From an uncultured virus (IMG/VR IMGVR_UViG_3300030104_003363) (taxonomy: Duplodnaviria; Heunggongvirae; Uroviricota; Caudoviricetes): a DNA stretch of 64,000 nucleotides. How positions within the stretch are numbered: position 1 is the stretch's first letter; every line of letters begins with the position of its first letter. Shown piece after piece: positions 987 through 64,000 of this stretch. The notes beneath the pieces are model-generated. The model made no database searches, was not told the origin of the DNA, and saw only the letters and a program-made list of their open reading frames with translations. Both the position numbers and the translations under genes were made by a program. The stretch lies in the IMG/VR virus record IMGVR_UViG_3300030104_003363. One strand, 5' to 3'.

Positions 987-1008
987 TTCTAAATTACGCA
1001 AAAAGAAT

Positions 1009-1150: not shown

Positions 1151-1190
1151 CTTTTTACGGAAAGCAGAAATAAAAAAAAGAAATAAAAAG

Positions 1191-4960: not shown

Positions 4961-5013
4961 GTTTATATAGTTGGGTTTGAAAAAAATTGTAGCAAAAAAT
5001 TATTGGTGGTAGC

Positions 5014-5873: not shown

Positions 5874-5897
5874 GCACTATGAGGCTTACATTTATAC

Positions 5898-6296: not shown

Positions 6297-6315
6297 TAAT
6301 AAAACACTATGAGGT

Positions 6316-34429: not shown

Positions 34430-34672
34430 TCACATTTGTGTAGATATTCCCATAGCACCTGCTACTATTGCTATTAAGGTAAATATAATTTTTTGCATAT
34501 TAGCCATATAAGTACCTATTAGGCCGTTAGTTATTTCTAATTCAGTAGCCACCTTAGCAAGCCCTGTTTGCATATTTACTTGAGACTGCACAAGTTGTTC
34601 TATCAACCTTTCATGTCTTTCGGTTACATTCTCTAAGTTATCTAATCTTAAAGATATTACGTCGTCTGACAC
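34430..34672 (-). CDS. Coiled-coil protein with C-terminal TM helix
   Basis: RLDNLENVTERHE...IIFTLIAIVAGAMGI. Confidence 0.6.
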   Translation of the reverse strand: MSDDVISLRLDNLENVTERHERLIEQLVQSQVNMQTGLAKVATELEITNGLIGTYMANMQKIIFTLIAIVAGAMGISTQM

Positions 34673-35058
34673 TAAGCCTCACCCATGTGTGCTTCTAATC
34701 GAGCCACAAGGTCTGCCTTTTTGCCTTTAACTGAAAGACCTGCCTCTTTCAATTTTTCTTTTAGTTCAGAAACATTATGTGAATCAAGAGTTTTTTCTAT
34801 TTTCTCTATTTCTTCTTTTGCTTCTTCGGCTTTCTCCTTAACCTCATCTACTGAATCTAATAATTCGTCTAATGTTATTTTTCCATCAGCACTTAATACT
34901 AGGTATTTTTTGTACAAAAATACACCTATACCTACTAATGCTGCTAAAGATAACAGTATTAATTCTATATCATCTAATAATGAAGATGATTCTAAGGGTA
35001 TGCAATCTATTGTTTCGTTTAGTGCGTTTACGCACGTTTCTGCTGTTGTGTTATTCAT
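34672..35058 (-). CDS. Membrane-anchored SAP-domain protein
   Basis: TM LILLSLAALVGIGVFLY; SAP motif VSELKEKLKEAGLSVKGKKADLVARL. Confidence 0.8.
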   Translation of the reverse strand: MNNTTAETCVNALNETIDCIPLESSSLLDDIELILLSLAALVGIGVFLYKKYLVLSADGKITLDELLDSVDEVKEKAEEAKEEIEKIEKTLDSHNVSELKEKLKEAGLSVKGKKADLVARLEAHMGEA

Positions 35059-49907: not shown

Positions 49908-50069
49908 AATAAAACGCAATACTGCGGCAATTTCTTCTATTTATTTTATTTCTTCTATAACATAGATGAGTTAAATTAGTAATAGATTAGTTATCAGACA
50001 GGGCCGTCGCTATCCCATACTAAAGAAAAAATAAATTAATTCCGAAACAGGCTTGTAGTACCACGTTTT
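49908..50069 (-). repeat. Conserved non-coding element, copy B
   Basis: Inverted homolog of 1009-1150 in the divergent portal/phosphoesterase gap. Confidence 0.85.
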
Positions 50070-50123
50070 TTTTATTTTGTAAACAACATAAATTATAAAA
50101 TTAAATAAGTATTATAAGACGGT

Positions 50124-51572
50124 ATGAGCAGCCTAATATCAATGGCAAGGTATCAAGGTGGGTACGACCTCATAGAAAAATACGCTAACGATAGAACTTT
50201 CAAAAGCAACTCCGAGTTTGCTAGGTTTTTGCACGAAGTTGAGCCTCAATGCTCGGTAAACAGTTGGAGATGTAGAATACAACGATGGGTCAAACAAGGA
50301 AATGACTTTAGGAATGTTGCTATACAAGATGTCTCTGTAAATAAGATAAAAGTTTACTATGATAAGGCAAACGACACTTATTTAACAGTATTAGAAGGTT
50401 TAGGCGGTCAAATGATTGCTATTGATGGTGATAAGCATAGAAACATGAAAAAAGATTACTCGGATGACGGTAACGGACTTACTATAACAGATTTGTCAAG
50501 AAAGTACGGATTACCTACTGGATGGGTAAAAGAATATGTAAAGGCAAACGAGTGGAATCACGGTATGGATATTTTTACCGACGAAGAAGTTATGCAAAAG
50601 ACAACAGATGACTTAGTTAAGGAAACTCTTGCTGTTAGACGTATGCAAGTAGCAGAGAAAGCAGAAAGTAAGCGTTGGGCGGAAATAGAAAAGGATGCTA
50701 ACTCATATAGAGCATTTAGCGAAACAATTCTTGATGAGTTCCGTAGTTTAATCCCAAAAGTAAAAACAAGTACGAAAAACAGAATCAAAATGACGGAAAA
50801 CGGTAATTACGCAGTAGTTATTTCTCCAACAGACTTACACTACGGTAAATATGGGTGGAAAGACGAGGTTGGTGAGGAGTATGACCTTGACGAAGCACGT
50901 TCAAGACTAATTGACAGAACTAACAACCTAATTTCAAGATTACCTAGTAGACCGGAAAAGATTATAGTAACTGCGGGTTCTGATTGGTTTCACATAGATA
51001 ATGACGTAGGCACTACTACAAAAGGTACACCACAAGATATGGCTGCATCTCCGGCACAGATTCTTATGGGTGGTTGTGAGTTAGCGAGAGAACATATCGA
51101 AATGCTTCGTGCTGTTTCTCCTGTACAAGTAGTATTTATGTGTGGTAATCACGACAGACACAGTAATTTTGCTTTGATGATGTATTTATCTGCACTTTAT
51201 GAGAATACAGACGATGTAGAAGTTATTGTTAGTCCGTACCCTCGACAGTATATAAAATACGGAAACTCTTTGTTAGGTTTTACTCATGGTGATGGTGTTA
51301 GAGGTAATGACTTACCTGCACTTATGGCTACCGAAGAAAGACAGGCATGGGGGCAGAGAGAACACCACTATTGGTTTCACGGACATTTACATCATATGAG
51401 ATTAACAGAAAAAGCCGGATGTACCGTAATACAACTACCTAGTTTAGCAGGGCATGATAGATACCACGCTAGAAAAGGTTATGTTCTTGCTAGGGCAGGG
51501 ATATGCGCCCACATTATAGATAAAGACTTAGGGCTTGTAGGCAATTTGTTTTCTCCGGTGGTGCATGAGTAA
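50124..51572 (+). CDS. Calcineurin-like metallophosphoesterase with N-terminal HTH-like region
   Basis: DLHYG, GSD..H, GNHD, HGD, GHLH. Confidence 0.85.
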   Translation: MSSLISMARYQGGYDLIEKYANDRTFKSNSEFARFLHEVEPQCSVNSWRCRIQRWVKQGNDFRNVAIQDVSVNKIKVYYDKANDTYLTVLEGLGGQMIAIDGDKHRNMKKDYSDDGNGLTITDLSRKYGLPTGWVKEYVKANEWNHGMDIFTDEEVMQKTTDDLVKETLAVRRMQVAEKAESKRWAEIEKDANSYRAFSETILDEFRSLIPKVKTSTKNRIKMTENGNYAVVISPTDLHYGKYGWKDEVGEEYDLDEARSRLIDRTNNLISRLPSRPEKIIVTAGSDWFHIDNDVGTTTKGTPQDMAASPAQILMGGCELAREHIEMLRAVSPVQVVFMCGNHDRHSNFALMMYLSALYENTDDVEVIVSPYPRQYIKYGNSLLGFTHGDGVRGNDLPALMATEERQAWGQREHHYWFHGHLHHMRLTEKAGCTVIQLPSLAGHDRYHARKGYVLARAGICAHIIDKDLGLVGNLFSPVVHE

Positions 51573-51688
51573 TGTGGGTTTCTGCTAGATGTCGTACTTG
51601 CGGGTGGGCTACTAACAGAATGATGAAAAGTAAAGCAGTAACAGGTATATGTCCACATTGTAATAAAAAAGACTTACATCCGAGGTAA
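51572..51688 (+). CDS. 38-aa Zn-ribbon microprotein (not in ORF track)
   Basis: CRTC...CPHC; TAATG overlap with upstream stop. Confidence 0.65.
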   Translation: MWVSARCRTCGWATNRMMKSKAVTGICPHCNKKDLHPR

Positions 51689-51692
51689 TTGT

Positions 51693-53204
51693 ATGGGTAC
51701 ATTTAACACTAATTTTTCTATGGAACGTAGTCGTAACGACGTAGAATATTTCTACAAGTGGTTAGGCTACACATGGGGAGAACACATAGGTGAGTGGATA
51801 GATATGTATGGCGATAACCATGACAATTCTTCTGTACATCGTGTTTGTATTATTGCACCGAGGGACCACAGTAAATCTACTACTTTAAGGGTAAAACTAT
51901 TACACATGGCTCTTTTTGAACAATGGCGTAACAAACCCTTTACTTGTTGGTTGTTTTCTGCTAGTAAGGACTTGGCTGTAAGAAGATTAGAAGAAATAAG
52001 GGAGGATATGAAAAGACATCCTCAATTGTCTAGGTATCTTGACCCTAAAAGGGGTAACAAACTAGAAATACGTTTTACTAATGGTGCATGGATTCGTGCT
52101 ACCTCAGTTGGTGCGGCTATTCGTGGAGAACACCCTGCGGCTATTGCATTTGATGACGTACTTGATGATATGGGCGATATGAACTGGAATGGTATAGCAC
52201 AATGGTTTAGAAAAAAGATTACACCTATGTTAAGTCCCGGCACAGCGATTTTCGTAGTAGGCACACCTATGAGTATGAATGATTTGTATCATACAGAGAT
52301 GTTAGAAAACAAAACATGGAAATCGGGTACATGGTCTGCTATTCCTAATTGGGATGAGTACAAAGCCGACCCCGAAAACGTAAAACCGAAGGAATTATGG
52401 TCTGAGTATAGACCAATTAAGTTTTTGTTAGAGCAGAAAGAGGCTATGGGTGAATTGTCTTTTGTACAGGAATATTTGTGTAAGGTAGTAGATGACGAGG
52501 CTAGTGTGTTTCCTAGAATGCTAATTAGAAAAAATCTTGACATGGATGCTATATTGCAGGTAGATAAGATGGATGGTTACAGATATGTAATAGGGTTTGA
52601 CCCTGCACACGGTTTAGGGCAAGATTATAGCGTTATGATATGTTTGAAACAAGATGACGAAGGTTATATTCACTTTGTAGATATGTGGAGAAGAAATGAC
52701 TTCCCACCGGATAAACAAGCAGATATGTTGATAGAGTGGAGTAAACGCTATGGTAACTGCCCCATAGCAGTTGAGGATGTAGGTTTTCAACAAATGTACG
52801 AAAGTTTGCTTGCACAAAAAGGTGCGGTAGTAGATTATCGGGCTAGTAAGGTTGGCAACAGGACTTTAAAGCAAGGTTTACTAAATAGGCTTAGAGTTTG
52901 GTTTGAAAGGGAAATGATAGTATTCCCCTTTGGTAACGATGCTACTAGAACAAAAGTAGGTATATTGTTACAAGAATTAGAAACCCATGCATGGCGTGAT
53001 GGGTTAATTGTAGATTTAGGTAAGCATAACGATACAGTTATGGCTTTTGCACACGCCATAGACCAATTCACATATAGAACACCGGATATGCCTGTAATTA
53101 TGAAAACCATGAAAGGTGGTGATTGGTTAGGCGGTGAAATACAAATGCAGCGTAGAGACAGGCATGGTATTGGTGGCAAAGTGATAGATAGGAGAGGATG
53201 GTAA
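51693..53204 (+). CDS. terL: Terminase large subunit
   Basis: APRDHSKST Walker A, IRGEH..IAFDD, VGTP, IGFDPA, HND.VMA. Confidence 0.93.
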   Translation: MGTFNTNFSMERSRNDVEYFYKWLGYTWGEHIGEWIDMYGDNHDNSSVHRVCIIAPRDHSKSTTLRVKLLHMALFEQWRNKPFTCWLFSASKDLAVRRLEEIREDMKRHPQLSRYLDPKRGNKLEIRFTNGAWIRATSVGAAIRGEHPAAIAFDDVLDDMGDMNWNGIAQWFRKKITPMLSPGTAIFVVGTPMSMNDLYHTEMLENKTWKSGTWSAIPNWDEYKADPENVKPKELWSEYRPIKFLLEQKEAMGELSFVQEYLCKVVDDEASVFPRMLIRKNLDMDAILQVDKMDGYRYVIGFDPAHGLGQDYSVMICLKQDDEGYIHFVDMWRRNDFPPDKQADMLIEWSKRYGNCPIAVEDVGFQQMYESLLAQKGAVVDYRASKVGNRTLKQGLLNRLRVWFEREMIVFPFGNDATRTKVGILLQELETHAWRDGLIVDLGKHNDTVMAFAHAIDQFTYRTPDMPVIMKTMKGGDWLGGEIQMQRRDRHGIGGKVIDRRGW

Positions 53205-53483
53205 GTGAAGAAGCGATATAACAAACAAAACCCCGAAATAAGAAGGCATGGACCAAAAAGCAAAAAAATTGTCTATAAGGAATCTATTGATAAAGTAATG
53301 GATGAAGGATATTTAGACGATTGGAAAACATCAGAAGAAATTGCGTGGAAAGCAAATAAATATGTAAGTAATTATTGGACACCACTTTCTAGGAATATAG
53401 TCCCAACGTACTTGAAGCGTACTAACCAAGTAAAATGGCGTAGGAAACCCGGCGCACATAAACTTGAGTGGAAAAAAATGTAA
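53205..53483 (+). CDS. Small basic winged-helix-like protein
   Basis: WKTSEEIA...IVPTYLKR. Confidence 0.5.
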   Translation: MKKRYNKQNPEIRRHGPKSKKIVYKESIDKVMDEGYLDDWKTSEEIAWKANKYVSNYWTPLSRNIVPTYLKRTNQVKWRRKPGAHKLEWKKM

Positions 53484-53659
53484 AAAAATATTTTTCAAAA
53501 AAATTATAAAAAATTGTGAGAGGGGGTTGGCGGTGTAATACGGCGACCTATATCTGACTTTTGGAAGAGAGAAAAGTGTATTTTTGGCCTAAAATCGCAC
53601 ATTTTTAGGTGAGAATCAAAATCATACATACTATATAGTAACGCTATCTAGGTAATGGC

Positions 53660-54808
53660 ATGGAGCAAAATCTGATGTATTTTGTAATTAGGCCTAACGA
53701 CGAACGCCCTCTATCCATAGAGGAAGAAGGAGAGTCAAAGACTCTTCTTGATGTGGTAAATACTCTCGGTATTACTACATCAAAAGGAGAATCTTTCAAG
53801 CGGTTTTCTTCGATGTTAAAAGCATTAGAGAAACACGGATTTCCTGTCATCGATTTACCTCATATTTCTGCCGGTAAATTAGACCATCTTGAATTAAAGA
53901 TTACACCAGTTAAAAGTAATGCGATTGTTAGTAGTTACAAGACTGACGAACTCAACCGTTCAGTTGACCCCAGTAACAAAAATATTTCAAGATATTCTAA
54001 GCAAGATTTTACTACACAACCTAGAAAGATTTGTCCTTGTAATTTCAATGATGATTATAGAAAAGACTCGACTCATGAAGCACCTAAATGTTACATGATT
54101 CTAGAACCAAATAGTAACCCAACCGAAGAGAAATATATCTCTAGAGGTTCAAAGTGTAGAAACACAATGTCATCACTAGAATATTACCAGTTAAAGACAT
54201 ACTTTACGAGTTCTATTATCGGTCATTATTGGAATATTATTAATGTCCCGACAATGGTATTCAAGAGAGGTGATTTCGACAAAGCAAGAGATTCAAAACT
54301 TAATCTTAGAATCGGCAACGGAGAATCATTTCAATCGGACTTTTACAGTAATAACAAAGACTTCCGAGATACAGTAGACGGTATCTGTAAAGACTGCAAT
54401 TCTCAAGGGTTTCAATGTGTTACAAAACAGAAGAAAAACGGCAACAAAGAAGTCTTAGGGACTATGCTACTGGCTCAACTAAATTATCATGGTTGGTATT
54501 CAGAAACTTACGACATGGTTGGTCTAGGTCAATCATGGAATCAACCAAAGTACTTACAGAAATTATCTACCGGAGAAATCAGAAGTGTTGATGATTGGAA
54601 TATGCCGGACTTCAAATGCCGACCGACATGGAGATTCACAATCGCAAAGTTCCTTTGTAGAAATGACCCAATGAGTAACGAGCCTCAAGTGAGATATGGT
54701 TGGGTCAAATATGTACCAACTGATGCTATGAACAAAGCACTAGATTCAATCAACAATGTATCATCAGAAATGCCATTGTTCGGAGAGGTTGATACAGGAT
54801 ATTATTAG
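53660..54808 (+). CDS. Hypothetical Cys-containing protein (first gene of the early-type region)
   Basis: 382-aa ORF; CTATATAG TATA ~29 nt upstream. Confidence 0.7.
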   Translation: MEQNLMYFVIRPNDERPLSIEEEGESKTLLDVVNTLGITTSKGESFKRFSSMLKALEKHGFPVIDLPHISAGKLDHLELKITPVKSNAIVSSYKTDELNRSVDPSNKNISRYSKQDFTTQPRKICPCNFNDDYRKDSTHEAPKCYMILEPNSNPTEEKYISRGSKCRNTMSSLEYYQLKTYFTSSIIGHYWNIINVPTMVFKRGDFDKARDSKLNLRIGNGESFQSDFYSNNKDFRDTVDGICKDCNSQGFQCVTKQKKNGNKEVLGTMLLAQLNYHGWYSETYDMVGLGQSWNQPKYLQKLSTGEIRSVDDWNMPDFKCRPTWRFTIAKFLCRNDPMSNEPQVRYGWVKYVPTDAMNKALDSINNVSSEMPLFGEVDTGYY

Positions 54809-54814
54809 ATGTAA

Positions 54815-54850
54815 AGGGGGTTAGGGGTCGTCAAGACCTCTAGCCTCTCT
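54815..54850 (+). other. RNA hairpin, ~13-bp stem
   Basis: GGGGTTAGGGGTC-GTCAA-GACCTCTAGCCTC right after the stop; no T-tract. Confidence 0.6.
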
Positions 54851-54877
54851 TAAAACATCACAATAGGGGGTAAAAAC

Positions 54878-55105
54878 ATGAAGATAAATGATAACACACT
54901 AAACGGAGATATAATCATAGTGAAATATGTTTACAAATCTGATAAATCTACATCATGGATTCGGGTATTTATTGACTTCGAGAATTATTTTGATTGTGTA
55001 GATTCTAAAGATAAAATAATACTTTCACAAGAAAGAAAATCGAACATATATGGCACATGGATTCAGAATAATATTATTGGAAGGATTGACAATGAAGAGA
55101 GATAA
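54878..55105 (+). CDS. Hypothetical protein
   Basis: ORF track; GGGGGT SD. Confidence 0.55.
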   Translation: MKINDNTLNGDIIIVKYVYKSDKSTSWIRVFIDFENYFDCVDSKDKIILSQERKSNIYGTWIQNNIIGRIDNEER

Positions 55106-55194
55106 GATAATTGCTGTAATAAGTAATGACGAAGAAGGTTGGGAATTAACCTTTACAGACATTGATTATTTATGCTAAATGGAGATGATGACGA

Positions 55195-55560
55195 ATGAAG
55201 AATGAAAGCGAGAAATTAGGAGACAACCTAATCAAAAACAGTCATGGAAAGGGGGGTGATATGCTAATGACTAACAAAAGACCAACATACCGAATAACAA
55301 CCTATGAAGATGCTGAAAATCTAGTGAATCCAACTCATAAAGAACATAATGGAGATTTATATGCAGTTGTAAATATCTTAGATTTAGAAAAGAGACTTGC
55401 TAAATGCAAAAAACATTGGAATAAAAGTCTTGGACAAAAAAGGACAGGTAAAAAAGATTATGTTATATTTTACTTTGATAAAATGTCACATCTTCAAGGA
55501 TGTAAATCAGATGACGAGGATATTCAATTAGGTGATTTTATACTTTCGGGTGAAAAGTAA
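55195..55560 (+). CDS. Hypothetical protein (start may be 55261)
   Basis: ORF track; GGGGTGA SD before 55261. Confidence 0.55.
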   Translation: MKNESEKLGDNLIKNSHGKGGDMLMTNKRPTYRITTYEDAENLVNPTHKEHNGDLYAVVNILDLEKRLAKCKKHWNKSLGQKRTGKKDYVIFYFDKMSHLQGCKSDDEDIQLGDFILSGEK

Positions 55561-55628
55561 ATATGGATATTAGACGGATTTACAAAAGACTTCTATGGAT
55601 ATATTCATAGAAGTTTAGAGCATAAATT

Positions 55629-55670
55629 AGGTCGGCCACCAAATTGGTGGTCGGCCTTTTTTTTATTTTT
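55629..55670 (+). terminator. Hairpin plus T-tract terminator
   Basis: AGGTCGGCCACCA-AAT-TGGTGGTCGGCCT followed by a T run. Confidence 0.75.
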
Positions 55671-55865
55671 ACAAAGGGGCTACCCTACAAAATAATTTTA
55701 TTTTTTTTCTGTTGTGCTACCCTACAAAATATTAGCCTACAAAATATTACCCTACAAAACTTTAACCTACAAAACTTTAACCTACAAAAGTCTGAGAGAA
55801 TCTAAAATCTAAAAATGTTTTCAAAAACTAAGATTTCAAACCCTACAAAATAAAGTAAATTATCC

Positions 55866-55897
55866 AAAAAAAGAAGGGGACTAGCCCCAACTTTTTT
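55866..55897 (-). terminator. Short hairpin flanked by A/T tracts
   Basis: AAAAAAGAAGGGGACTAGCCCCAACTTTTTTT directly after the 55898 stop. Confidence 0.55.
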
Positions 55898-56431
55898 TCA
55901 AATATCCGATGCAAACTTTAGCATCTCTTCCGGCACTTTTCTGAATAATAACCATTGTCCAGAATCTCTGGATTTCATAACCCAATATCCAGCAGCCTTA
56001 ATATCTGCTTTATTTTCTCTCCATTCATCCCAGAATGCTTTATCATTGATATGGCCGTACCAGACCGTTCTACGGCGACTCATTTTCATGGTAATACCAA
56101 ATGCTTCCATATTAGTAAACACCGGCCTAGCCGAGTCGTATTGCTTAATTTTAGCACCTTTATCACCTAGTTTGTCTCTGATTGCTTGTGCTTTTACTTT
56201 TGCCTCAGTTTTATTGTGTGCTAGGTTCTGAATAAAGGATGAAGTATGGAAGTAACCATATGCACCTCTAATCAATCTATCAATGTACAGGGTGTAGTAT
56301 TGTTCTTTATCACCTGTTCTACATACATAGTATGTAGCCTCAATTTTGGGTTTTTGCGTTTTAGGGCTTGCGTCATCAAGTTTAGCGGCCTGTAGTAATA
56401 ATACTAGACCTAGTAGGATTCCAACCAACAT
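55898..56431 (-). CDS. Hypothetical protein with N-terminal signal/TM segment
   Basis: MLVGILLGLVLLLQAA; TATATATA promoter and downstream terminator. Confidence 0.7.
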   Translation of the reverse strand: MLVGILLGLVLLLQAAKLDDASPKTQKPKIEATYYVCRTGDKEQYYTLYIDRLIRGAYGYFHTSSFIQNLAHNKTEAKVKAQAIRDKLGDKGAKIKQYDSARPVFTNMEAFGITMKMSRRRTVWYGHINDKAFWDEWRENKADIKAAGYWVMKSRDSGQWLLFRKVPEEMLKFASDI

Positions 56432-56643
56432 GATTCATACGAAGTGGTATTAGTATATATATATTATTGGTTATTAGGATAATATTTTGTAGGGTTAGGT
56501 TTCTATTATACTGCGTATGTCATCCCTACAAAATCTTATGTAGCATATTAGGTCAAACAACATAGGTCAACCCTACAAAATATGGGTCAACCCTACAAAA
56601 AAATGAGGGCGGGGTGTTGCAGCACCCCAACCCTACAAAAGAT

Positions 56644-56781
56644 TTATTGCGTTATTTTACGGTAACGAGCCGCCCCATTTTGATACCCTACAAAAGAGTA
56701 TTTTTTTGGGCATGGGTAGCCCCATTCATTCTTATTTTTCTTACTTAGCCTATCCGCTTTAACTGTACCTTTTAAGGACAT
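56644..56781 (-). CDS. 45-aa basic protein (not in ORF track)
   Basis: MSLKGTVKADRLSKKNKNEWGYPCPKKYSFVGYQNGAARYRKITQ; promoter matches that of 56431; GGGGTG/CACCCC hairpin plus T-tract downstream. Confidence 0.6.
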   Translation of the reverse strand: MSLKGTVKADRLSKKNKNEWGYPCPKKYSFVGYQNGAARYRKITQ

Positions 56782-57579
56782 ATTTTACTCTAGTCGTGTT
56801 TTGCTTATAGTATTATTGGTAATCTATCTCTTTATTTTGTAGGGTGTTGTAATATTCCCTAGTATTGTCTCCTACAAAACAATATGTATGGATTTTATTT
56901 TGTGTCCTCTAAGTATAGGGGTTTCATGCCCTAAAAAATCAACCCTACAAAATAATAATAAGTGTAATTTTTACACTAAGTGTTGTGAATAACACCGAAT
57001 AACCCTACAAAATAAGTTTTTTTAGCAAAAAAACCCTACAAAATATTGAGCCGTAAAAAGGTAGTATTTATATAGGTAAACAGCATCTCATCACGGATAT
57101 TTAGTTTTGCGGGATTATTTTGTAGGGGTAAAATAACATGGCCGGATTTGACACACAGTCGAGCGTGTAAAATAAAAACCCTACAAAATAAAAAAAACGC
57201 TGTACTGCGGCGGTGCAAAAAGTAAACCTGAGATTTTTTCCCTACAAAATAAAACCTACAAAAGATTTTCCTACATTCATTTATCCACAATTATTTTGTA
57301 GGGGTTTTCCGAAGTCAAAAAGTTACTTAGTGTAAAAACTACACCGAGTGTCAAAAATCACACCTACTGTTAAACACACACTAAGATATTTTGTAGGGGT
57401 TGGGTACTCTAAAAAATGAAAGACCCTACAAAAGATTAAATAGAAAGATTATTTTTTTGGTAAAACAAAACCCTACAAAAGACAGGCTATAAGATGATGA
57501 AAAATTACAAAAAGTTACCCTACAAAATAAGGAGAATGAGAATAGAAACGCTTATAAAGGGTAACGATATATTCAAATT

Positions 57580-58158
57580 ATGAGTAAAATTAGAAAACCG
57601 TGCAGATACAAACAATGTAAAGGGGTTGTCCATCGTGGAAAATGTCCAGTAGCCTCAAAAAGAGGTTCAAAAGGTGGTAGCACTACCGGCAAATCAAAAG
57701 CGAGAACAGGTTCAAATAATGGTCGATTTACAGGACTTCGAGAATGTGGATGTCCAAAAAGACAACATTTACCTTCTTGTATTCATTCTCAATTAACATT
57801 ACAAAAAGTCAAAATTATTAACGCACATGATTTCAATTATAATGAGAATCTATCACTTGAGATTTACGACCAAAAAATGCAATCTAAGTTTCCAAAGTCA
57901 AAGACTAAAATTAGAATTGCGAGAAAAGAAAATATCCCACTTAAAAGAACTGTGGCAAATTGGGAATTAGAAAATGCCGTCAAGGTAAAATCAATTCCTC
58001 ATTATTCATTCTTAAAATATACGGGCGTGTGTGCCTCATGTGCGTGCGAGAAAAATATCAAAGACGCTCACGTCATACACGTAGACGATATTAAATATAA
58101 ATTACCAAAAGAGCATTATTTCAAGGCTCGAATAATTTGCGACGCTTGCGAAGCATAA
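57580..58158 (+). CDS. Basic Cys/His-rich (multi Zn-finger-like) protein
   Basis: CRYKQC..H..C, CGC..H..C, CASC, CDAC; CTTATAAA TATA upstream. Confidence 0.7.
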   Translation: MSKIRKPCRYKQCKGVVHRGKCPVASKRGSKGGSTTGKSKARTGSNNGRFTGLRECGCPKRQHLPSCIHSQLTLQKVKIINAHDFNYNENLSLEIYDQKMQSKFPKSKTKIRIARKENIPLKRTVANWELENAVKVKSIPHYSFLKYTGVCASCACEKNIKDAHVIHVDDIKYKLPKEHYFKARIICDACEA

Positions 58159-58195
58159 TCGGAGACTCTAAATACTATTAACAAAAGGTGAGAAC

Positions 58196-58300
58196 ATGGA
58201 CAAAAGAGGCGTAAATAACAGAGGTAGAACTCAAAGAATTGTTAATTTGCTTCTTGATGATTCTAAAAGATACGGGAGACAAAGATATGAACAACGATAA
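58196..58300 (+). CDS. 34-aa basic peptide (not in ORF track)
   Basis: ATG exactly 54 nt after the promoter element. Confidence 0.45.
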   Translation: MDKRGVNNRGRTQRIVNLLLDDSKRYGRQRYEQR

Positions 58301-58532
58301 ATATAATGGATGGACAAACAGAGAAACGTGGCTTATTAATCTACATTTTGAGCCAAGAAATCTTAGTGATTTGGATTTCATAAATGATGAGATAATAACT
58401 TATGCTAAAAAAATCCAAGAATTACCTTACGGTATGTTCTTTACAGATTTTCTTGATTTGAGTAAAATCAATTGGTACGAATTAAAAAATCACGTTCAAG
58501 AAAATTATGATGACGCTTGTGAAGCAGAATGA
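58287..58532 (+). CDS. Conserved phage protein (YNGWTNxETW motif)
   Basis: MNNDKYNGWTNRETWLINL; GGAG SD. Confidence 0.7.
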   Translation: MNNDKYNGWTNRETWLINLHFEPRNLSDLDFINDEIITYAKKIQELPYGMFFTDFLDLSKINWYELKNHVQENYDDACEAE

Positions 58533-58872
58533 AAGACTTTAAATAAGATTGACGATAAGATTAAATTGTAAGAAAAACAACGGAGATAAAAAATATGTAT
58601 GAAGATAGCGAATGGCTAAAAGAAATGATTGAAAACACGAAAGCGGGTAAGATTTATTTGGCGGGGTCTGAAAGATGAAAGATTTCCGCCCGACACTTCA
58701 AAGAAGAATTGATTTGAAGAAATCAAATCCGGCCTTGACCCTTTGGGCTAGGCAAAAAATTGATGAACTCGGATTGAATGCCGAGAAATATTAGATTTAC
58801 CAAAAAAGTAAAACTTGCCTTCCGGCATTAGGTTCGGGAGAGGACTTGTTTTGTAGGGTCAAAAAACCTTTC

Positions 58873-58907
58873 GGGGTGCATCCATTCGGGTGCATCCCAC
58901 TTTTTTT
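58873..58907 (+). terminator. Hairpin plus T-tract terminator
   Basis: GGGGTGCATCC-ATTC-GGGTGCATCCC then AC-T7. Confidence 0.7.
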
Positions 58908-59248
58908 ATTTTTATAGCCTATATTTTGTAGGGTTAAAGAGTGATTTTTTTTTATTTCAGATTCAAATATTTTGTAGGGTAGTTACTTCTTCCGCAAAAA
59001 TAATTTTGTAGGGTCGCCCCTTTTTTTGTAGATACATATACCCTACAAAATAATTAAGCCTGTCTTTTGTAGGTTAATTACATTTACAGTAAAACTAAAA
59101 ATCCTACAAAAGATTTCAAATCCAAAAACTAAAACCCTACAAAATAAAACCGTAAAAGAAAAAATAAAACTCAAAAATAAACCCTACAAAATAACGCTTG
59201 TGTAGCAGAATTGAAAGACTTAAATAAAATTACTTTTTGGTGTTAAAT

Positions 59249-59425
59249 ATGCGAACAGAACTAAGAATTGCACTAACGGTTGAGAAAATAAATCAAATTA
59301 GAGAAAGAAATGGTGAATTATTTGCTAAGGGAATTACCAACCTATCAAGTGATGAATTAGAAGAATTAGGCGAATTAATTGATGAACTTGAAAAATTACT
59401 TCATCTACAAAGAAACGGGTTCTGA
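59249..59425 (+). CDS. Small helical protein
   Basis: Leaderless ATG 55 nt after the promoter element. Confidence 0.65.
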   Translation: MRTELRIALTVEKINQIRERNGELFAKGITNLSSDELEELGELIDELEKLLHLQRNGF

Positions 59426-59480
59426 GACGCTTGCGAAGCAGAATCAACAGGTTTAAGTAGTAGGGCGGAGATGGATATAT

Positions 59481-59600
59481 ATGGCGAGAATGGAGAAGAG
59501 AAGCGAACAAACACCGATAGAAGGATTAAAAGTTATAAAAATACAAAGTGGGGCACGAATAAAAAAGTGTCATAATTTGTTGAGGGAGATGGGATTTTAA
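59481..59600 (+). CDS. 39-aa peptide (not in ORF track)
   Basis: Fills the gap between two promoter elements exactly; ATG at +54. Confidence 0.55.
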   Translation: MARMEKRSEQTPIEGLKVIKIQSGARIKKCHNLLREMGF

Positions 59601-59716
59601 CGCTTGCGAAGCAGAATCGTAAGCCTTAAAAGGAATGACTAATTAGTTAGTTTTGTGGGAGAAGTAACCCACACTAAAAAAACATTCGCAAAAAAACAAA
59701 AAAGGAGATAAAAAAA

Positions 59717-59911
59717 ATGAAATATGAAATAGGAATGAAAGTGAGTTTCGGGCGACCGAATGGAGAAAAGACCGAGGGTATTATCACAAAGATAAACCCT
59801 AAAAGCCTCAAGGTGCGAACCTTAGAGAGTCGTGGTAGAGCAGGTAGGTCTGTTCAAGGGACTGTCTGGAAAGTACCGAGAGATGAGAGATACACGAAGG
59901 TGATACAATGA
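59717..59911 (+). CDS. Small SH3/Tudor-like beta-barrel protein
   Basis: YEIGMKVSF...GIITKINPKSLKV...WKVP. Confidence 0.6.
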   Translation: MKYEIGMKVSFGRPNGEKTEGIITKINPKSLKVRTLESRGRAGRSVQGTVWKVPRDERYTKVIQ

Positions 59912-60903
59912 GTAGAGGAATGAGAGGAATGTTGGGTGCATATGCCCGATTTGGAAAAGAAGCACAAGGAACGACTGTGAAAGAGGTTTTGTGTAATGCA
60001 AAAGCCGATTTCAAGATTGGTATGGAATCTGTCTATACTAAAGATGGTAAGGTTATACCTAACCAATTTAGGACATTTAGAGAAGATACCGATGAAACTT
60101 TTGGTGTTGTAAAAGGCACATACAAAGTTATGCAAAATGAAAGATTGTTAAATATATCTGACGATTTGGTAAAAAGAGGCGTAGTAGATTGGGATAGGAT
60201 TGGACTTGTAGATAACGGTAGAAAAATCGTAGCATCTTTTAAGATGCCCGAAGGGTTCTCTATCGGTGGAATGGATGATGTAGACCAATATATCATGCTG
60301 CAAAATACAAATGATGGTTCGGGTGGAATACGTATTTTACCCTCAAATGTAAGAATTGCTTGTAGTAATCAATTTACATATATGCAAAGTCTATTGAATA
60401 AAATGGGTATCAATAAAAATGCTCTAACTATCAGACATTCAGCACGTCAAGAAGATAGGATTGCACAATTAGTCGAGGCTCTAAAAATTGTAGACCATCT
60501 CAATCAGACATTCATGGAAACAGCGACAGAGTTAATCAATGTTGAAATGTCTCAAGATGAGAGAATCAATTTCTACATAGATACTTTAGGGCTAAAACAA
60601 AATGAAGATATGATGAAGGGCGGCAAAGATTATGATGCTAACAATCCTTACGGATTAGGTACTAGAGGTCAAAATACTCTCACAGAATTGTTAGAGTTAG
60701 AGTTAGCACCAACAAATCAATTGAACGGAATGGGTGGCTCGGCTTGGGGCTGTTTTAATACAGCAACGGAATATATAGACCATTCGTGGACGTACTCAAA
60801 GGACGGCAAATCAAGTGATAGCAAAGTAGAATCAGCAATCGTAGGTGCGGGTGCTAGAATGAAGTCAAAAGCATGGGAAACCATCACGGAGATGTACGCC
60901 TAA
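59908..60903 (+). CDS. DUF932-family phage/plasmid protein
   Basis: GVV...YKVMQN, NTNDGSG, VRIACSN, IRH, AW..FN.ATEYIDH. Confidence 0.8.
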   Translation: MSRGMRGMLGAYARFGKEAQGTTVKEVLCNAKADFKIGMESVYTKDGKVIPNQFRTFREDTDETFGVVKGTYKVMQNERLLNISDDLVKRGVVDWDRIGLVDNGRKIVASFKMPEGFSIGGMDDVDQYIMLQNTNDGSGGIRILPSNVRIACSNQFTYMQSLLNKMGINKNALTIRHSARQEDRIAQLVEALKIVDHLNQTFMETATELINVEMSQDERINFYIDTLGLKQNEDMMKGGKDYDANNPYGLGTRGQNTLTELLELELAPTNQLNGMGGSAWGCFNTATEYIDHSWTYSKDGKSSDSKVESAIVGAGARMKSKAWETITEMYA

Positions 60904-61035
60904 GATTTATCGTAAAAGTAAGTAGGGGGGTAGTACCCTCTACTTACGCCTTCGGGCGTAGCCTATCTTTTGTAGGGTTCACGCTTGCGAGGCAGAATGA
61001 ATAGATTTAAGTAAAAAGAAAAAGGAGAGAGATAT

Positions 61036-61446
61036 ATGAGAACAAGATACGGTAAAACCGGAGAAATATGTAAAAGACAAAACGGAAGAATGATGATGAC
61101 TATAAGACCGACACCAACGGTTTTAGATGATAAAGATATAGCCATGTTTTTAGGTTATCTTTGTAATGTACAAATGCGTTTTGGTGATTATGGCGAAAAA
61201 ATTAGTTATCAAGAGGCTAAACAAAAAATACATGATTGGCAATATAATTGCGGTGCAGTTACACCTTTGACAAAGAAATTAATTATGGATTATCTAACAA
61301 GTAATCATTACTTAGCACAATATGAAGAATGTACTGATATGTATGAGTGTTATGATTCAGAAAATGAGTCGCATAAAGCATTACTAGAAAAAGTACATGA
61401 GATATTCCCTTCTTTTGTCGTAAAAGAAACCGAGGTGATTGCGTGA
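61036..61446 (+). CDS. Hypothetical protein
   Basis: ORF track; own promoter. Confidence 0.65.
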   Translation: MRTRYGKTGEICKRQNGRMMMTIRPTPTVLDDKDIAMFLGYLCNVQMRFGDYGEKISYQEAKQKIHDWQYNCGAVTPLTKKLIMDYLTSNHYLAQYEECTDMYECYDSENESHKALLEKVHEIFPSFVVKETEVIA

Positions 61447-61700
61447 GTAATCCTTACAGCGTTAAAGTTTATCCTATGGCTGCAAATCAGTTTAGGATAT
61501 ATCATGGTGATACGATAACATTTCAATCATACAATTCAACAATATGCACCAAAATTGAAGATAGAGTAATTTTACATGAGCCATATTGGAATATGTATTC
61601 AGCAACCACTAACAAATATTTACTAAGATTCTTAGAAGAAGATTCAATTAATACTATTAGGGAAAAAGTAAAGTCAGGAGAATATGAGGTGATTGCATAA
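61443..61700 (+). CDS. Conserved phage protein (FQSYNS...YSATT motif)
   Basis: Motif recurrent in small phage early proteins; GAGGTGA SD. Confidence 0.65.
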   Translation: MSNPYSVKVYPMAANQFRIYHGDTITFQSYNSTICTKIEDRVILHEPYWNMYSATTNKYLLRFLEEDSINTIREKVKSGEYEVIA

Positions 61701-62041
61701 TGGCTAATCTAAATATTATTACAAATCAAGTTTATGATTGGATAAACGAATCTAATACAGATTTTAACTTAGATTTCGGAGAAAAGAAACTTTACTTGGT
61801 TGTAGAATGGATTGACGGTAAATCGCTTTTTATAGAAGATTATTTTTATTTTATGAATGAATTGATTGCTGCTTATTGTGATTTAGATAGAGATACTGAT
61901 GAGGTAAAAGTAATTTGGTTTAACAGAATATTCGGAATCAATAGTGAGTATCATGGAATCGCTGATGGGAGATGGACTGATGACGCTTGCGATACACAAT
62001 CGGCAGACTTAAATAAGATGGAAAAGGAGAGAGATATATGA
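61700..62041 (+). CDS. Acidic hypothetical protein
   Basis: ORF track; GAGGTGA SD. Confidence 0.6.
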   Translation: MANLNIITNQVYDWINESNTDFNLDFGEKKLYLVVEWIDGKSLFIEDYFYFMNELIAAYCDLDRDTDEVKVIWFNRIFGINSEYHGIADGRWTDDACDTQSADLNKMEKERDI

Positions 62042-62229
62042 GTAAAAGAGAAGAAGAGATGGTAGACTTAGCCTTAACAGAATTAGAAAATGCTATGGAT
62101 GCACTACATAAACTGAATAGAGAAACGAACATAGTAGACGATGTTGAATATGATAAAATAAATAGAGCGACTTGGGATATAGAACAAGTGTTAAAAGATT
62201 GGAAAGATGAAAATATAGGGGATGAATAA
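62038..62229 (+). CDS. Small acidic helical protein
   Basis: ORF track; own promoter. Confidence 0.6.
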   Translation: MSKREEEMVDLALTELENAMDALHKLNRETNIVDDVEYDKINRATWDIEQVLKDWKDENIGDE

Positions 62230-62482
62230 AATGAGAAACGTAAGTATAAATGGACACGGCATAAAAGAAATAAGAATACTAAGAGGCAAAGGTGATTTAG
62301 ACCATTTGCTTAGAGTTATAATCGTTGGTAAAAATGATGAAGTAACCGATATTAGTTTATTTGGTATGGCTGATAAAGAAACACACAAAGATATTAAAAT
62401 ACCCGTAAAAGTAACTAGTGATATTCAAGTAACTACCCATGAGATTAATTTTCTTGGTGATATAATAGATGAAGAGGAATAA
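62222..62482 (+). CDS. Hypothetical protein
   Basis: ORF track; coupled to neighbours. Confidence 0.6.
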   Translation: MNKMRNVSINGHGIKEIRILRGKGDLDHLLRVIIVGKNDEVTDISLFGMADKETHKDIKIPVKVTSDIQVTTHEINFLGDIIDEEE

Positions 62483-62484
62483 AT

Positions 62485-62823
62485 ATGGCATTAAAAGATA
62501 CACTAACTAATTTGCACAAGTATGATGAAGAGATAGAGACATTATACAATGAACATGACTTTAACCCCAATCTTAGTTTCGCTAGGAATGCGGCTAAAAA
62601 TACTGTTTGGGCTGCTTTTTACACAGCAGCGAGAGAGGTAGGAATGACCGAAGATATGGCTAAACAATTTATTGATTCAAAGTGGTTTAGACACAATCAA
62701 GAGGAAATATACAAACAAATTACAGCGACATTATTTACAATGCTTTGGTGCGAATCATCCTTTGTTGATGATACCGAGTTTAGTAAATTAGAGCCTTACA
62801 TTGATAGAGGGGATGTAGAATGA
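62485..62823 (+). CDS. Hypothetical protein
   Basis: ORF track; GAGG SD. Confidence 0.6.
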   Translation: MALKDTLTNLHKYDEEIETLYNEHDFNPNLSFARNAAKNTVWAAFYTAAREVGMTEDMAKQFIDSKWFRHNQEEIYKQITATLFTMLWCESSFVDDTEFSKLEPYIDRGDVE

Positions 62824-62939
62824 TTAGAGATAGTTTTAAGGAAATAGTAAATGATGAGTTGATGATACTAATTATGACACAAGTTATTTTTGGGGTAATA
62901 TCATTAGGTATCTTGATTACTGCGGCTGTGATATTATGA
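62820..62939 (+). CDS. 39-aa single-TM peptide (not in ORF track)
   Basis: ATGA overlaps at both ends; hydrophobic C-terminal half. Confidence 0.55.
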   Translation: MIRDSFKEIVNDELMILIMTQVIFGVISLGILITAAVIL

Positions 62940-63520
62940 ATATACCAAAATACTACGGATATAAATACTATGTGGGCGACCCTTGTTATGTCATAGATGA
63001 TAATAGATGGGAAGAGTTTTGTACAGCCCTATGGGATGGAGAAAAAGAAAATAAAGATAATGGTTGTCCTGAATATCCCGTTTATATCGAGTGGGGTATA
63101 GATGGTATAATTTACAATATAGAAGTATGGAATAGTCCAAACGGAGATGGTGTTTGGAACTTTAGTAATACCGTAAAAGAAATGCGTGGTTGGATTGCAG
63201 GTACAGAAATGGGTGTTGATGCAGGTTTATTGGCTATCGTACCCTATGGTGCTATTTCTAATAACAGCACTTGTTCAGATAAAGATAGCATAAAAGAAAT
63301 ATCAAATCTAGGTATTATTTTTACCGAAGAACCAACCTTAGAAACAGGTATACACGTAGTAGGTGAAGTAACACTAAATTACAATGATGAAAATAATGTA
63401 TATTATTGTTATAATTGCGGAGAGCATACCTACGAACATGATGTAATAGATTGTGAAAACTATAATTGTATGGGATGCTATACGTGTTTTGAATGTGAAT
63501 GTGAGGATGAGGAAGAATGA
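62936..63520 (+). CDS. Phage protein with GDPCY / GVDAG motifs and Cys-rich acidic tail
   Basis: YVGDPCYV, GVDAGLL, CYNC..CENYNC.GC..C. Confidence 0.7.
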   Translation: MNIPKYYGYKYYVGDPCYVIDDNRWEEFCTALWDGEKENKDNGCPEYPVYIEWGIDGIIYNIEVWNSPNGDGVWNFSNTVKEMRGWIAGTEMGVDAGLLAIVPYGAISNNSTCSDKDSIKEISNLGIIFTEEPTLETGIHVVGEVTLNYNDENNVYYCYNCGEHTYEHDVIDCENYNCMGCYTCFECECEDEEE

Positions 63521-63909
63521 CTAGTAGGCGACCTAGAAAAATCATGGTTGATTTCTGTTACAGATATATTAGAGATAACGGAAAACAAAGTGCTACTGAT
63601 TTACTTCAAGCCTATGATAAACAAGATTTGAGTCTGAAAAGAATCGGTCTTTGCAGCCATCGTGAGTTAGCATCTTTATTATCCAAAGATAGACTTTTCT
63701 TTAAGGTAAAAGAAGATTGGAAAATAGTAAATGGAAATAAAGTTTACAAATATGATATTAATGATGTGCATGAGGTAGCGAAGAAATTGGCCTTGCTAAC
63801 ACATATTAGAGCGACACCTGCTCAGATGCCTAAGATACTTAGGGATGCATATCTTGACGCTTGCGAGGCAAAATCAACAGACTTAAATAGAATGAGCGAG
63901 AGGGTATAA
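63517..63909 (+). CDS. Winged-helix protein (paralog of 1222-1629)
   Basis: ELASLLSKDRLF, MPKILRDAY. Confidence 0.6.
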   Translation: MTSRRPRKIMVDFCYRYIRDNGKQSATDLLQAYDKQDLSLKRIGLCSHRELASLLSKDRLFFKVKEDWKIVNGNKVYKYDINDVHEVAKKLALLTHIRATPAQMPKILRDAYLDACEAKSTDLNRMSERV

Positions 63910-63910
63910 T

Positions 63911-64000
63911 ATGAGTAAAACAATAGAGGTAAGAATGAGAGTATTAGATTGGACATGGTGTGATGGAGATGAAGAGTGCTTCGTTACATTAGAATATACA
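63911..64000 (+). CDS. Partial ORF running off the window
   Basis: ATG 54 nt after the promoter element; open to window end. Confidence 0.55.
   Translation, partial: MSKTIEVRMRVLDWTWCDGDEECFVTLEYT

Follow-up and report, generated by a model that had tools for sequence, protein, structure and literature searches.

The stretch of DNA analyzed here (the window, 64,000 nt of one strand) carries a mostly non-coding region with packaging genes on one side and small early genes on the other, and a single short word recurs throughout it. The exact 9-mer CCTACAAAA is present in 37 copies (26 on the + strand and 11 on the - strand), the first at 55684 and all inside 5.3 kb, with 0 copies in the 58.7 kb of the window that lie outside 55.6-61 kb. 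In 100 dinucleotide-preserving shuffles the mean count was 1.17 and the maximum 4, with 0/100 reaching 37. The 8-mer CCTACAAA is as confined as the 9-mer (37/37 in the array region), and the extended consensus of the copies is aACCCTACAAAA(T/G)A. The word is asymmetric, 9-12 bp long and without a TATA of its own. An earlier note on this DNA had described about 37 copies on both strands between 55.7 and 61 kb, had noticed none elsewhere and had proposed a count against shuffled background; the exact count agrees with it, and a similar density genome-wide is ruled out.

The copies form three clusters (7, 20 and 9 copies) and one solitary copy (Table 1). Some stand alone, others form 12/15-bp tandems or, at divergent promoters, palindromes, and the spacing between copies is loose (12-98 bp). 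Cluster 1 is flanked by two hairpin-plus-T-run elements (55630-55672 and 55873-55898), and the hairpin at the edge of cluster 3 has a fold (z -4.16) that 0/200 shuffles equal. Five tandem copies at an exact 15-bp period, as reported earlier, begin at 55721, 55736, 55751, 55766 and 55781. The numbering used in the earlier note (55720 and so on) refers to the same tandem copies counted from an extra C. Its description of the array as almost entirely intergenic holds for the 534-nt ORF (55898-56431, -) and the 579-nt ORF (57580-58158, +), which contain 0 copies, and needs amending for one copy (56687) that lies inside a 45-aa ORF overlooked at the time. The 56,790-57,550 part of cluster 2 is strongly conserved in relatives and contains no ORF having promoter geometry. 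The layout of cluster 3 recurs in L154 (16032-16213) and in G004, and units similar to GTGT-N-ACAC are seen in L136 (8090-8330) and also in L166.

Table 1. Features of the array region, in window coordinates.
Feature	Position	Strand	Remarks
Cluster 1, 7 copies	55684..55850	all +	five tandem copies at 15-bp period (55721-55789), then short GAGAGA tract
177-aa gene, function not assigned	55898..56431	-	TATA 56454-56463, 21 nt downstream of - copy 56485
Cluster 2, 20 copies	56485..57527	15 +, 5 -	
45-aa leaderless ORF	56644..56781	-	contains copy 56687
Two GTGT-N-ACAC palindromes	56960..56996		second, different site type inside the array
Palindromic TATA-like box TATTTATATA	57065..57074		21 nt downstream of + copy 57035
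Three GTGT-N-ACAC units, period ~19 nt	57327..57385		
p192, 192-aa basic Zn-Cys protein	57580..58158	+	TATA 57551-57559, 24 nt downstream of + copy 57519
Cluster 3, 9 copies	58849..59191	divergent	four -, inward +/- pair 59042/59065, three +; A/T-rich spacers
Strong hairpin then seven-T run, terminator-like	58873..58907	+	left edge of cluster 3
Motif B element + TATA (59219)	59195..59229	+	between last + copy (59183) and gene starting 59249
Solitary copy	60968..60976	-	abuts motif B promoter element

Magroviruses rank with the most abundant viruses in surface seawater. To our knowledge, neither they nor their hosts are in culture, and we know of no account of how their gene expression is controlled or where their replication starts. 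The virus studied here looks like a group C magrovirus: it encodes archaeal-type replication genes and GroEL, a phosphoesterase/exonuclease ORF (50124-51572) adjoins its terminase gene, and the longest contig carrying p192 is 68,263 nt. Group C magroviruses are reported to have genomes of ~65 kb, whose replication block includes a bacterial-type GroEL and whose structural block includes a PolD-exonuclease-like gene (PMC5434244), and the chaperonin encoded here is likewise of the GroEL type. These features and the replication genes support the marine archaeal virus suspected earlier. A search of three magrovirus papers for repeats, promoters and intergenic regions found no such array described, in line with the earlier note, which knew of none for marine archaeal viruses.

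The array is not an assembly artefact, a possibility raised earlier, because independent assemblies carry it. One 4876-nt Logan contig, identical to the window over 55098-59973, is present in two runs. Another study supplied a 20.8-kb contig that reaches from 50009 to 63996 and includes a related form of the array, and IMG/VR contigs of at least five other samples carry the array as well.

Small leaderless genes are present within the array region, and the geometry of promoters in this virus (leaderless, TATA-22 nt-ATG) provides a working promoter model for annotating magrovirus genomes. Five of the 37 copies sit 21-28 nt upstream of a TATA that is itself ~22 nt upstream of an ATG; for the 45-aa ORF, 22 nt separate the - copy at 56835 from the TATA (56804-56812) downstream, and another 22 nt lead from there to the ATG. 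No ORF follows the palindromic TATA-like box. In a pool of 322 copies from 10 loci, the commonest place for TATA-like hexamers is +24 to +27 from the copies (33 matches vs 3-14 in other downstream bins and 1-10 in bins on the upstream side), and copies favor the strand of the flanking genes both in the window (26 vs 11) and in a pool of 326 (241 vs 85). The copies and loci are kin, so neither set of pooled counts represents independent events. Head-to-head pairs at a fixed 11-nt offset number 14 in relatives. In L136, palindromes lie between the divergent TATA boxes of small leaderless genes, and ~seven small leftward genes are each headed by one. The early genes at 59.4-64 kb have a different element, motif B.

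What is new here is that, as a search of related viral contigs revealed, arrays of this kind recur in relatives with lineage-specific variants of the word. Of the terminase-relative loci, 29 extend 4 kb or more past the terminase gene on its downstream side, and 24 of these have a 9-mer at 10 or more copies there; upstream of the terminase gene this was the case in 0/55 loci. The arrays comprise 37-64 copies within 3.5-7 kb. The word varies by lineage round a common TACAAA core (ACCCTACAAAAT, TGCCTACAAAAC, GACTACAAAAT, TGTTACAAAAC with 64 copies, and TTATCTACAAAT), and the core is shared by clades with terminases 69-95% identical to that of the window. Terminases of 93-95% identity are nonetheless accompanied by three word variants, the word switching in concert between close lineages, and at the homologous site upstream of p192 a copy occupies the same place with the clade's own word. 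Within the window's clade, word columns are invariant (126/126 vs 441/648 other columns), as measured on the 14 copies in 56779-57585, all of them unchanged across the five sequences compared. The array is an easily recognized, strongly selected cis-element marking a control region, and its lineage variants offer a natural experiment for studying joint change in a DNA-binding specificity and dozens of its sites. Homogenization among repeats is another possible source of the concerted change.

No protein family common to all arrays was found, Pfam and PHROGs detected no DNA-binding domain within the array or next to it, and an HTH repressor did not turn up either. The array-linked p192 is only a candidate reader of the word: it is 57-59% identical where the word changes (terminase 95%), and it is missing from four array-bearing loci (L181, L154, L133 and L189) that cover the array and its downstream side. 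Since the word is known for each lineage, the array can be used as a concrete bait for finding the reader protein.

We tentatively favor the reading that the copies are operator-type sites for a virus-specific DNA-binding regulator of the early control region, at slightly less than even odds. The reality and confinement of the word, its extra conservation and lineage variants, the partial promoter geometry and the strand bias are observed; from these we infer protein binding of the word, a viral origin of the protein and transcriptional control as the outcome. Some protein almost certainly reads the word, since arrays of this kind recur in relatives with small changes of spelling, and the palindromes together with the use of both strands point to double-stranded DNA as the form in which the word is used. 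The copies would be recognition sites at the DNA level for one sequence-specific protein, most likely virus-encoded, whose role would be transcriptional control of the hypervariable region that separates the early genes from the late packaging operon. This putative protein would occupy the asymmetric ~12-bp sites singly, the 12-15-bp tandem runs cooperatively and, in dimeric form, the palindromic pairs that lie between divergent leaderless promoters. Where a copy precedes a TATA by ~21-28 nt, it could act on promoter firing, by activation or repression, with the remaining copies serving as a high-occupancy sink or roadblock. Counting against the operator reading, the protein searches above yielded no binder, p192 is missing from four array-bearing loci, the TATA geometry applies to only 5/37 copies, the strand bias is incomplete and the early genes at 59.4-64 kb use motif B. 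The earlier note is partly supported: its binding array for one protein is favored, on word invariance, use of both strands, fixed-offset palindromes and concerted change, but it had overlooked the copies at a fixed distance from TATA boxes, the small leaderless genes and the variant words of relatives. A broader version, in which the array is an organizing center that nucleates both replication and transcription, an origin and early-promoter hub in one, seems to us rather unlikely; a private 'address word' would co-evolve with a viral protein, and switching words would give co-infecting relatives mutually exclusive control circuits, a logic comparable to that of EBV oriP/FR-EBNA1 or ParB-parS nucleation.

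Several other readings were weighed. Replication iterons, one of the roles listed in the earlier note, are possible though unlikely: an initiator would bind the copies, and divergent polarity round an A/T-rich center would direct two-way loading of the helicase that the virus itself encodes. In cluster 3 a central inverted pair does have copies pointing outward on both sides, and the spacers are A-rich; the counterpart at L154 16032-16213 is followed by ~60 nt of A-rich DNA, and G004 has five copies in one direction and seven in the opposite one. Words specific to a lineage are typical of iteron/initiator pairs, and the L136 promoters with a (GA)n tract after them could conceivably prime through R-loops. 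However, GC skew and duplex stability add no support: cumulative GC skew reaches its minimum not at the array but at ~49-50 kb, the point at which gene direction flips, and the least stable DNA is at ~1030, 47455 and 49.9-50.0 kb, the clusters (67-70% A+T vs 62% for the window) ranking only 8th and 10th among 200-bp windows. Iterons at plasmid and phage origins are replicon-specific repeated binding sites, usually 3-10 in number and 17-22 bp in length, beside an initiator gene and an A/T-rich unwinding element. The array resembles them in its repeated putative binding sites of replicon-specific sequence, but the usual number, length and adjoining initiator were not found here, and no clear unwinding element stands out; 37 to 64 copies over 3.5-7 kb is far above what known origins use, the array and its neighborhood yielded no initiator-like family, and some copies have a fixed promoter geometry. 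The replication genes reported for magroviruses include no origin-binding initiator (PMC5434244), so one would still have to be found. We consider it improbable that the word clusters and promoters are boundaries of mobile regulatory cassettes, whose junctions flank small hypervariable genes and mediate recombinational shuffling, with gene conversion keeping the word uniform without a dedicated reader. Gene content differs greatly from array to array (of the relatives, only L103 and L104/L112 share the window's 177-aa gene, which L105-L107 lack), L136 has its ~seven palindrome-headed small genes, no protein family is common across clades, copy number differs between strains (37, 46, 36 and 35), and contigs of runs X3 and X4 show skips and a 155-nt go-back. 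The PeSLs of T4-type phages are such mobile regulatory cassettes, promoter-plus-stem-loop units of ~50-70 bp that occur once per gene; they share with the array repeated promoter-bearing motifs flanking small novel genes in a hyperplastic early region, and differ from its dozens of copies of a 9-12-bp word. Homogenization alone does not account for an invariant 9-mer amid freely varying spacing and flanks, nor for fixed 11-nt palindromes and a fixed TATA distance, and cassettes are in any case compatible with a reader protein.

A centromere-like or packaging site, either parS-type with a partition adaptor or pac with a small terminase, is very unlikely. The array always lies downstream of the terminase operon, and short direct and inverted repeats at promoters recall the heptad arrays of omega (pSM19035) and the ParR/parC iterons, which consist of 7-10 contiguous units with partner genes adjacent and cooperative binding; here the spacing is loose and partner genes were not found. 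The parS/centromere idea in the earlier note is weakened on the same point, no partition ATPase/adaptor pair having been found beside the array. An ORF 44 kb away (11178-12122) has a weak CbiA/ParA-type match (E 0.0012, below the cut-off) but no relative among solved structures. A small-terminase gene was not recognizable, the first copy is 2.5 kb past the terminase gene, and known pac and cos sites have a handful of repeats. We also have little confidence that the array serves to titrate or recruit some DNA-binding protein of the host, or that it is a staged-entry (T5-like) stop signal. The TACAAA core shared across clades could point to a host factor that is itself conserved, the flanks being adapted to each host strain, but three word variants at 93-95% terminase identity speak against it, and a genome scan returned only bacterial records among the 80 matches listed. 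In T5 the first-step-transfer stop region lies within a terminal repeat at the genome end that enters first. The T5-like injection stop and the placement at the end of the genome find no support here, since contigs run through the region, the window extends 3 kb further and nothing places the region at a genome end. Least credible of all is that the word acts in RNA, with rightward non-coding transcripts carrying copies as a sponge or decoy for an RNA-binding protein. About 74% of the copies are on the rightward-transcription strand, the tandem copies of L136 begin about where a rightward TATA-like box would place the transcript start, and the fold of 56596-56690 leaves the word unpaired in a three-way structure (z -3.05; 1/200 shuffles as good). 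On the other hand, one copy in four is on the opposite strand, the palindromes suggest double-stranded DNA, there is no Rfam match and other inter-copy segments fold no better than shuffles.

Returning to operator-type sites, two described systems are close. The stoperators of Cluster A mycobacteriophages, sites of the L5 gp71-type immunity repressor, are also asymmetric short sites in many copies (PMC6550527, PMC9283540), and their motif is likewise similar but not identical between related viruses (PMC6550527). Most stoperators point the same way relative to transcription; here 26/37 copies, and 241/326 in the pool, are on the strand of the flanking genes. Stoperators differ in being genome-wide with a known HTH repressor (PMC6550527), whereas here the copies keep to one region of a virus with an archaeal host and a quarter of them are reversed. 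The halovirus HF2 (Haloferacalesvirus), also an archaeal tailed virus, has two bidirectional promoters embedded in 12-bp direct repeats 14-15 bp apart, and class I/II intergenic repeats that carry promoters (PMC8707807). Private short direct repeats at ~15-bp spacing at divergent promoters, with position and orientation kept in relatives, are common to both, with counterparts here in the five-copy 15-bp run, the L136 palindromes between divergent TATA boxes and the conservation of 14/14 copies. HF2 has four boxes at one site and nine promoter-carrying repeats of 29-58 bp dispersed over the genome, in contrast to a 9-12-bp word present 37-64 times in 3.5-7 kb, on both strands and changing between close lineages. 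The HF2 repeat holds the TATA and the transcript start, whereas here the TATA is 21-28 nt downstream of the word; in this respect motif B fits the HF2 repeat better.

The 64-kb window contains 37 copies of the 9-mer CCTACAAAA, here called the word (26 on the plus strand and 11 on the minus strand), all within 55684-60976, in agreement with the earlier note, which had counted about 37 copies at 55.7-61 kb and noticed none elsewhere. Dinucleotide-preserving shuffles, a shuffled background such as it had proposed for an exact count, gave a mean of 1.17 copies and a maximum of 4. The shorter CCTACAAA is equally restricted (37 of 37 inside the array region), and alignment of the copies extends the consensus to aACCCTACAAAA(T/G)A. 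Five tandem copies at an exact 15-bp period (55721-55781) are present as had been described, and no copy lies within the 534-nt or the 579-nt ORF that the word was said to skip. Helical phasing of the copies was considered and rejected, as same-strand spacings hold no 10.5-bp series and are most commonly 12, 15, 26 and 47. The array is not an assembly product, the artefact that the earlier note had raised, because independent contigs carry it: one 4876-nt contig matches 55098-59973 identically in two runs, another study supplied a 20.8-kb contig that runs through a related version of the whole region, and IMG/VR contigs of several other samples bear 23-46 copies.

Features of the array region in window coordinates
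Feature	Position	Strand	Remark
Cluster 1	55684-55850		
Cluster 2	56485-57527		
Cluster 3	58849-59191		
Lone word copy	60968		
Hairpin and T-run	55630-55672		Ends the terminase operon; left of cluster 1
Two-way hairpin with T-runs	55873-55898		Right of cluster 1
Strong hairpin and seven-T run	58873-58907		z -4.16; start of cluster 3
TATA-proximal copy	56485	-	Before the 177-aa gene
TATA-proximal copy	56835	-	Before 45-aa leaderless ORF 56644-56781
TATA-proximal copy	57035	+	Before a TATA without an ORF
TATA-proximal copy	57519	+	Before p192
TATA-proximal copy	59183	+	Before the gene at 59249

No tRNA gene or Rfam family was matched across the window, and blastn of 55400-61400 against named phages returned only a single chance-like match of 58 nt. 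The nearest record, a 17-kb fragment (G001), does not carry the word, and a host search of genome contigs with a three-copy pattern gave bacterial records only among the 80 matches listed. The tandem period equals five codons, and a TTG-started 53-aa ORF at 55644-55805 (+) would translate the run as five xYKxL units; with neither TATA-ATG geometry nor a homologue, this ORF is unlikely to be a real gene.

We collected 80 related loci, anchored on the large terminase. Some 9-mer is present in at least 10 copies downstream of the terminase gene in 24 of the 29 loci with at least 4 kb there, and on the upstream side in 0 of the 55 loci with at least 4 kb there. The search of related viral contigs suggested in the earlier note thus uncovered analogous arrays, with a word that varies by lineage: ACCCTACAAAAT in the window clade (35-46 copies), TGCCTACAAAAC in L115, L122 and L124 (22-33), GACTACAAAAT in L126 (20), ATGCTACAAATTT in L131 (22), TGTTACAAAAC in L136 (64), CGTTACAAAAC in L142 (34), TTATCTACAAAT in L154 (46) and GGTAACAAAT in L133 (17). 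More distant clades carry unrelated words: AAATCCAAAT, a GGGTATATAAAC promoter box and palindromes. The CCC, GCC and GAC variants of the word are all found in viruses with terminases that share 93-95% identity with that of the window, which indicates that the word flanks change fast and in concert over dozens of copies. The copy upstream of the gene for p192, a 192-aa Zn-Cys protein, keeps the same position in the CCC and GCC clades, each with its clade's own word.

Loci with CCTACAAAA on one strand only (L048, L028 and others) were rejected: what they carry is an unrelated 9-bp tandem repeat. In these unrelated viral contigs (L048, L049, L074, L028, L013, L097 and L017; IMG/VR 3300013383_000066, 3300014039_000045 and others), units of CCTACAAAA or CCTACCCCA and their variants, all on one strand, fill 40-120 nt directly 5′ of many start codons.

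Conservation was examined in an alignment of window 56779-57585 with four relatives, in which 14 of 14 word copies are intact in all five sequences. Not one of the 126 columns of the word varies, and of the remaining 648 columns 441 are invariant. The non-coding stretch is 81-84% identical to L105-L107 (85-94% in cluster 3) and is more conserved than the adjoining coding DNA (72-73% over 53001-54882), indicating that more than the word is functional here. A second class of site, GTGT-N-ACAC palindromes, lies at 56960-56996 and 57327-57385 and recurs in other clades (L136 8090-8330; L166 3520-3540 and 6990-7010). In several clades the arrays contain these units in tandem, at a period of roughly 19 nt and irrespective of which word is used; a second factor, one that is more conserved, probably binds them.

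Five of the 37 copies sit 21-28 nt 5′ of a TATA box and point at it. The word itself was considered as a TATA box or BRE and dropped, the true TATA boxes lying 21-28 nt further on. Over 322 copies at 10 loci, with related copies treated as independent, TATA-like hexamers peak 24-27 nt past the word (33 matches, against 3-14 in other downstream bins), and the opposite side has 1-10 per bin and no peak. The spacing is real but limited to some 10% of copies. More copies lie on the strand of the flanking genes than on the opposite one, by 26:11 in the window and by 241:85 in a pooled count whose events are not independent. Cluster 3, which stops on the right at the promoter of the gene at 59249, is divergent, with four copies leftward, an inward pair and three rightward, a layout also found in L154 and G004. 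The clearest case is L136. There a perfect palindrome (two copies at an 11-nt offset) has on one side a leftward TATA, heading a leaderless gene of small size, and on the other a TATA-like box facing right, after which come 2-4 copies in tandem, at a period of 12 or 15 bp, and a (GA)n tract. The palindrome-promoter unit is repeated about eight times. Head-to-head pairs at exactly 11 nt number 14 over 10 loci; none is in the window, where the nearest is the 59042/59065 pair at 23 nt.

The reading that fits best, suggested tentatively and as a possibility somewhat short of probable, is that the copies are putative sites for a sequence-specific DNA-binding protein controlling transcription of a hypervariable early control region. 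It would account for a short word that does not vary and is used on either strand, for the palindromes of fixed geometry that separate divergent promoters, for the tandem runs, for the constant spacing from some of the TATA boxes, and for a word that changes in concert from lineage to lineage. A promoter-proximal word would be centred near -57, and in archaea activators bind at such a position more typically than repressors do. Many other copies would lie in presumably transcribed DNA, where they may act more like roadblocks or a sink.

The main rival, an iteron-type replication origin, appears unlikely. The divergent polarity of copies with A-rich spacers would suit it, as would the initiator that is missing in magroviruses, but the sheer number of copies and the ordinary duplex stability of the clusters do not; as an origin mark, an unwinding element was not distinctive. 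GC skew, by which the earlier note had proposed to locate the origin, instead reaches its minimum at about 49-50 kb, outside the array, and is not distinctive for it. Roles as cassette boundaries, as centromere or packaging sites, at the RNA level, or in host-factor binding or an entry stop are less likely.

If the copies are indeed binding sites for a transcription regulator, p192 (57580-58158, plus strand) is the obvious suspect as their reader. It is basic, with two invariant Cys clusters; in the CCC, GCC, AAATCCAAAT, GGGTATATAAAC and GTTACAAAA clades its gene is found at the main array's right edge, and its own promoter bears the word. Between the CCC and GCC clades it is 57-59% identical, against 95% for the terminase and 91% for the DUF932 neighbour. 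We keep it only as a candidate because its family is missing from four loci that cover an array and its downstream side (L181, L154, L133 and L189), because none of its 35 homologue clusters has a family name (one has precomputed Pfam domains), and because its AlphaFold2 model is poor (pLDDT 64, pTM 0.31) and matched no solved fold in the PDB by Foldseek at E <= 0.001. The weak Foldseek matches above that threshold, from this poor model, were to Zn(Cys)4 parts of Fur/PerR, and the best ESM Atlas score (0.79) is in the chance range. No protein family common to all arrays emerged when 321 ORFs from the array regions of 16 loci were compared all against all by BLASTP. Likewise, Pfam, run on 95 ORFs of the window and related loci, showed no clear DNA-binding domain next to the array. 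Away from it, Pfam gave only a sub-threshold HTH at 12956-13330 and, in the structural block, a 128-aa protein (34672-35058, minus strand) with a C-terminal SAP domain, a DNA-binding motif (E 2.8e-11).

The window has a second private element, the promoter element motif B (ACGCTTGCGAAGCAGAAT), with nine plus-strand copies at 6695, 58143, 58514, 59195, 59428, 59601, 60982, 61984 and 63858, which head the gene at 6748 and early genes of small size. It contains a small GCTT-gcg-AAGC hairpin and lies 7-9 nt 5′ of a (C/T)TTAA(A/G)TA box, itself about 22 nt 5′ of the ATG. Two genes, whose ends are at 58158 and 58532, use its letters as code for the C-terminal DACEA(E), which is kept throughout the p192 family. 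In sequencing run X2, a contig departs from the window immediately after the motif B copy at the p192 end (58158), and its first 30 loose letters are those following the copy at 6695 (about 6713). This points either to recombination at motif B in a strain variant or to a cross-link of the graph at the 19 common letters.

Genes of the window include a family B DNA polymerase, an RFC-like clamp loader, an ERCC4/HhH nuclease, tail, portal and large terminase genes, the last adjoined by a phosphoesterase/exonuclease gene. The polymerase is nearest those of haloarchaeal tailed viruses (24-25% identity), the window encodes a bacterial-type chaperonin (GroEL), and the longest contig bearing the window's p192 is 68,263 nt. 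These traits fit the description of group C magroviruses by Philosof et al. 2017 (PMC5434244), and from gene content, by a match of traits rather than a tree, we infer this placement and the host. A 2273-aa ORF adjoining the tape-measure gene (18799-25620, minus strand) was considered as a virion RNA polymerase and dropped, having no PHROG or Pfam match. Many gene starts, among them 49824(-), 53660, 1222, 61036, 62038, 57580 and 56431(-), have a TATA-like box about 22 nt before the ATG, the geometry of archaeal leaderless transcripts, which fits an archaeal host. Were leaderless transcripts general, the GGAG-like runs 5′ of some ATGs would precede the transcript start.

Among archaeal tailed viruses, the nearest described likeness is in halovirus HF2, where two bidirectional promoters lie within four 12-bp direct repeats at 14-15-bp spacing, and promoters are also borne by nine longer repeats between genes (PMC8707807). 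The logic of the array recalls the stoperators of Cluster A mycobacteriophages, asymmetric sites that are numerous, for the most part share one orientation and have motifs drifting between relatives (PMC6550527); stoperators are, however, genome-wide as a defining feature, whereas the array is confined to one region. It belongs to neither family and is a variant on known kinds. Term searches in the text of the magrovirus papers PMC5434244, PMC11706807 and PMC10160649 found no mention of similar repeats, promoters or intergenic elements, and a literature listing on magroviruses and repeats gave none either.

In L112 (contig 3300021368_001314), a close relative with 46 copies in total, a cluster 1 duplication of about 770 bp at 4550-6330 gives two tandem runs, and the same 155-nt go-back is present in runs X3 and X4. 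Logan contigs over 52,600-59,970 have 1.5-2x the depth of flanking contigs in runs X1 and X2, with boundaries within the terminase and DUF932 genes, more likely reflecting a co-occurring strain with a common segment than a terminal repeat. Near the window start, a 67-aa ORF (983-1186, plus strand) and its A/T-rich surroundings have homologues in the relatives G004 (5527-5682) and G002 (7438-7549), where they occupy the gap that separates the divergent portal and nuclease genes. This small element moves between the two least stable intergenic regions.
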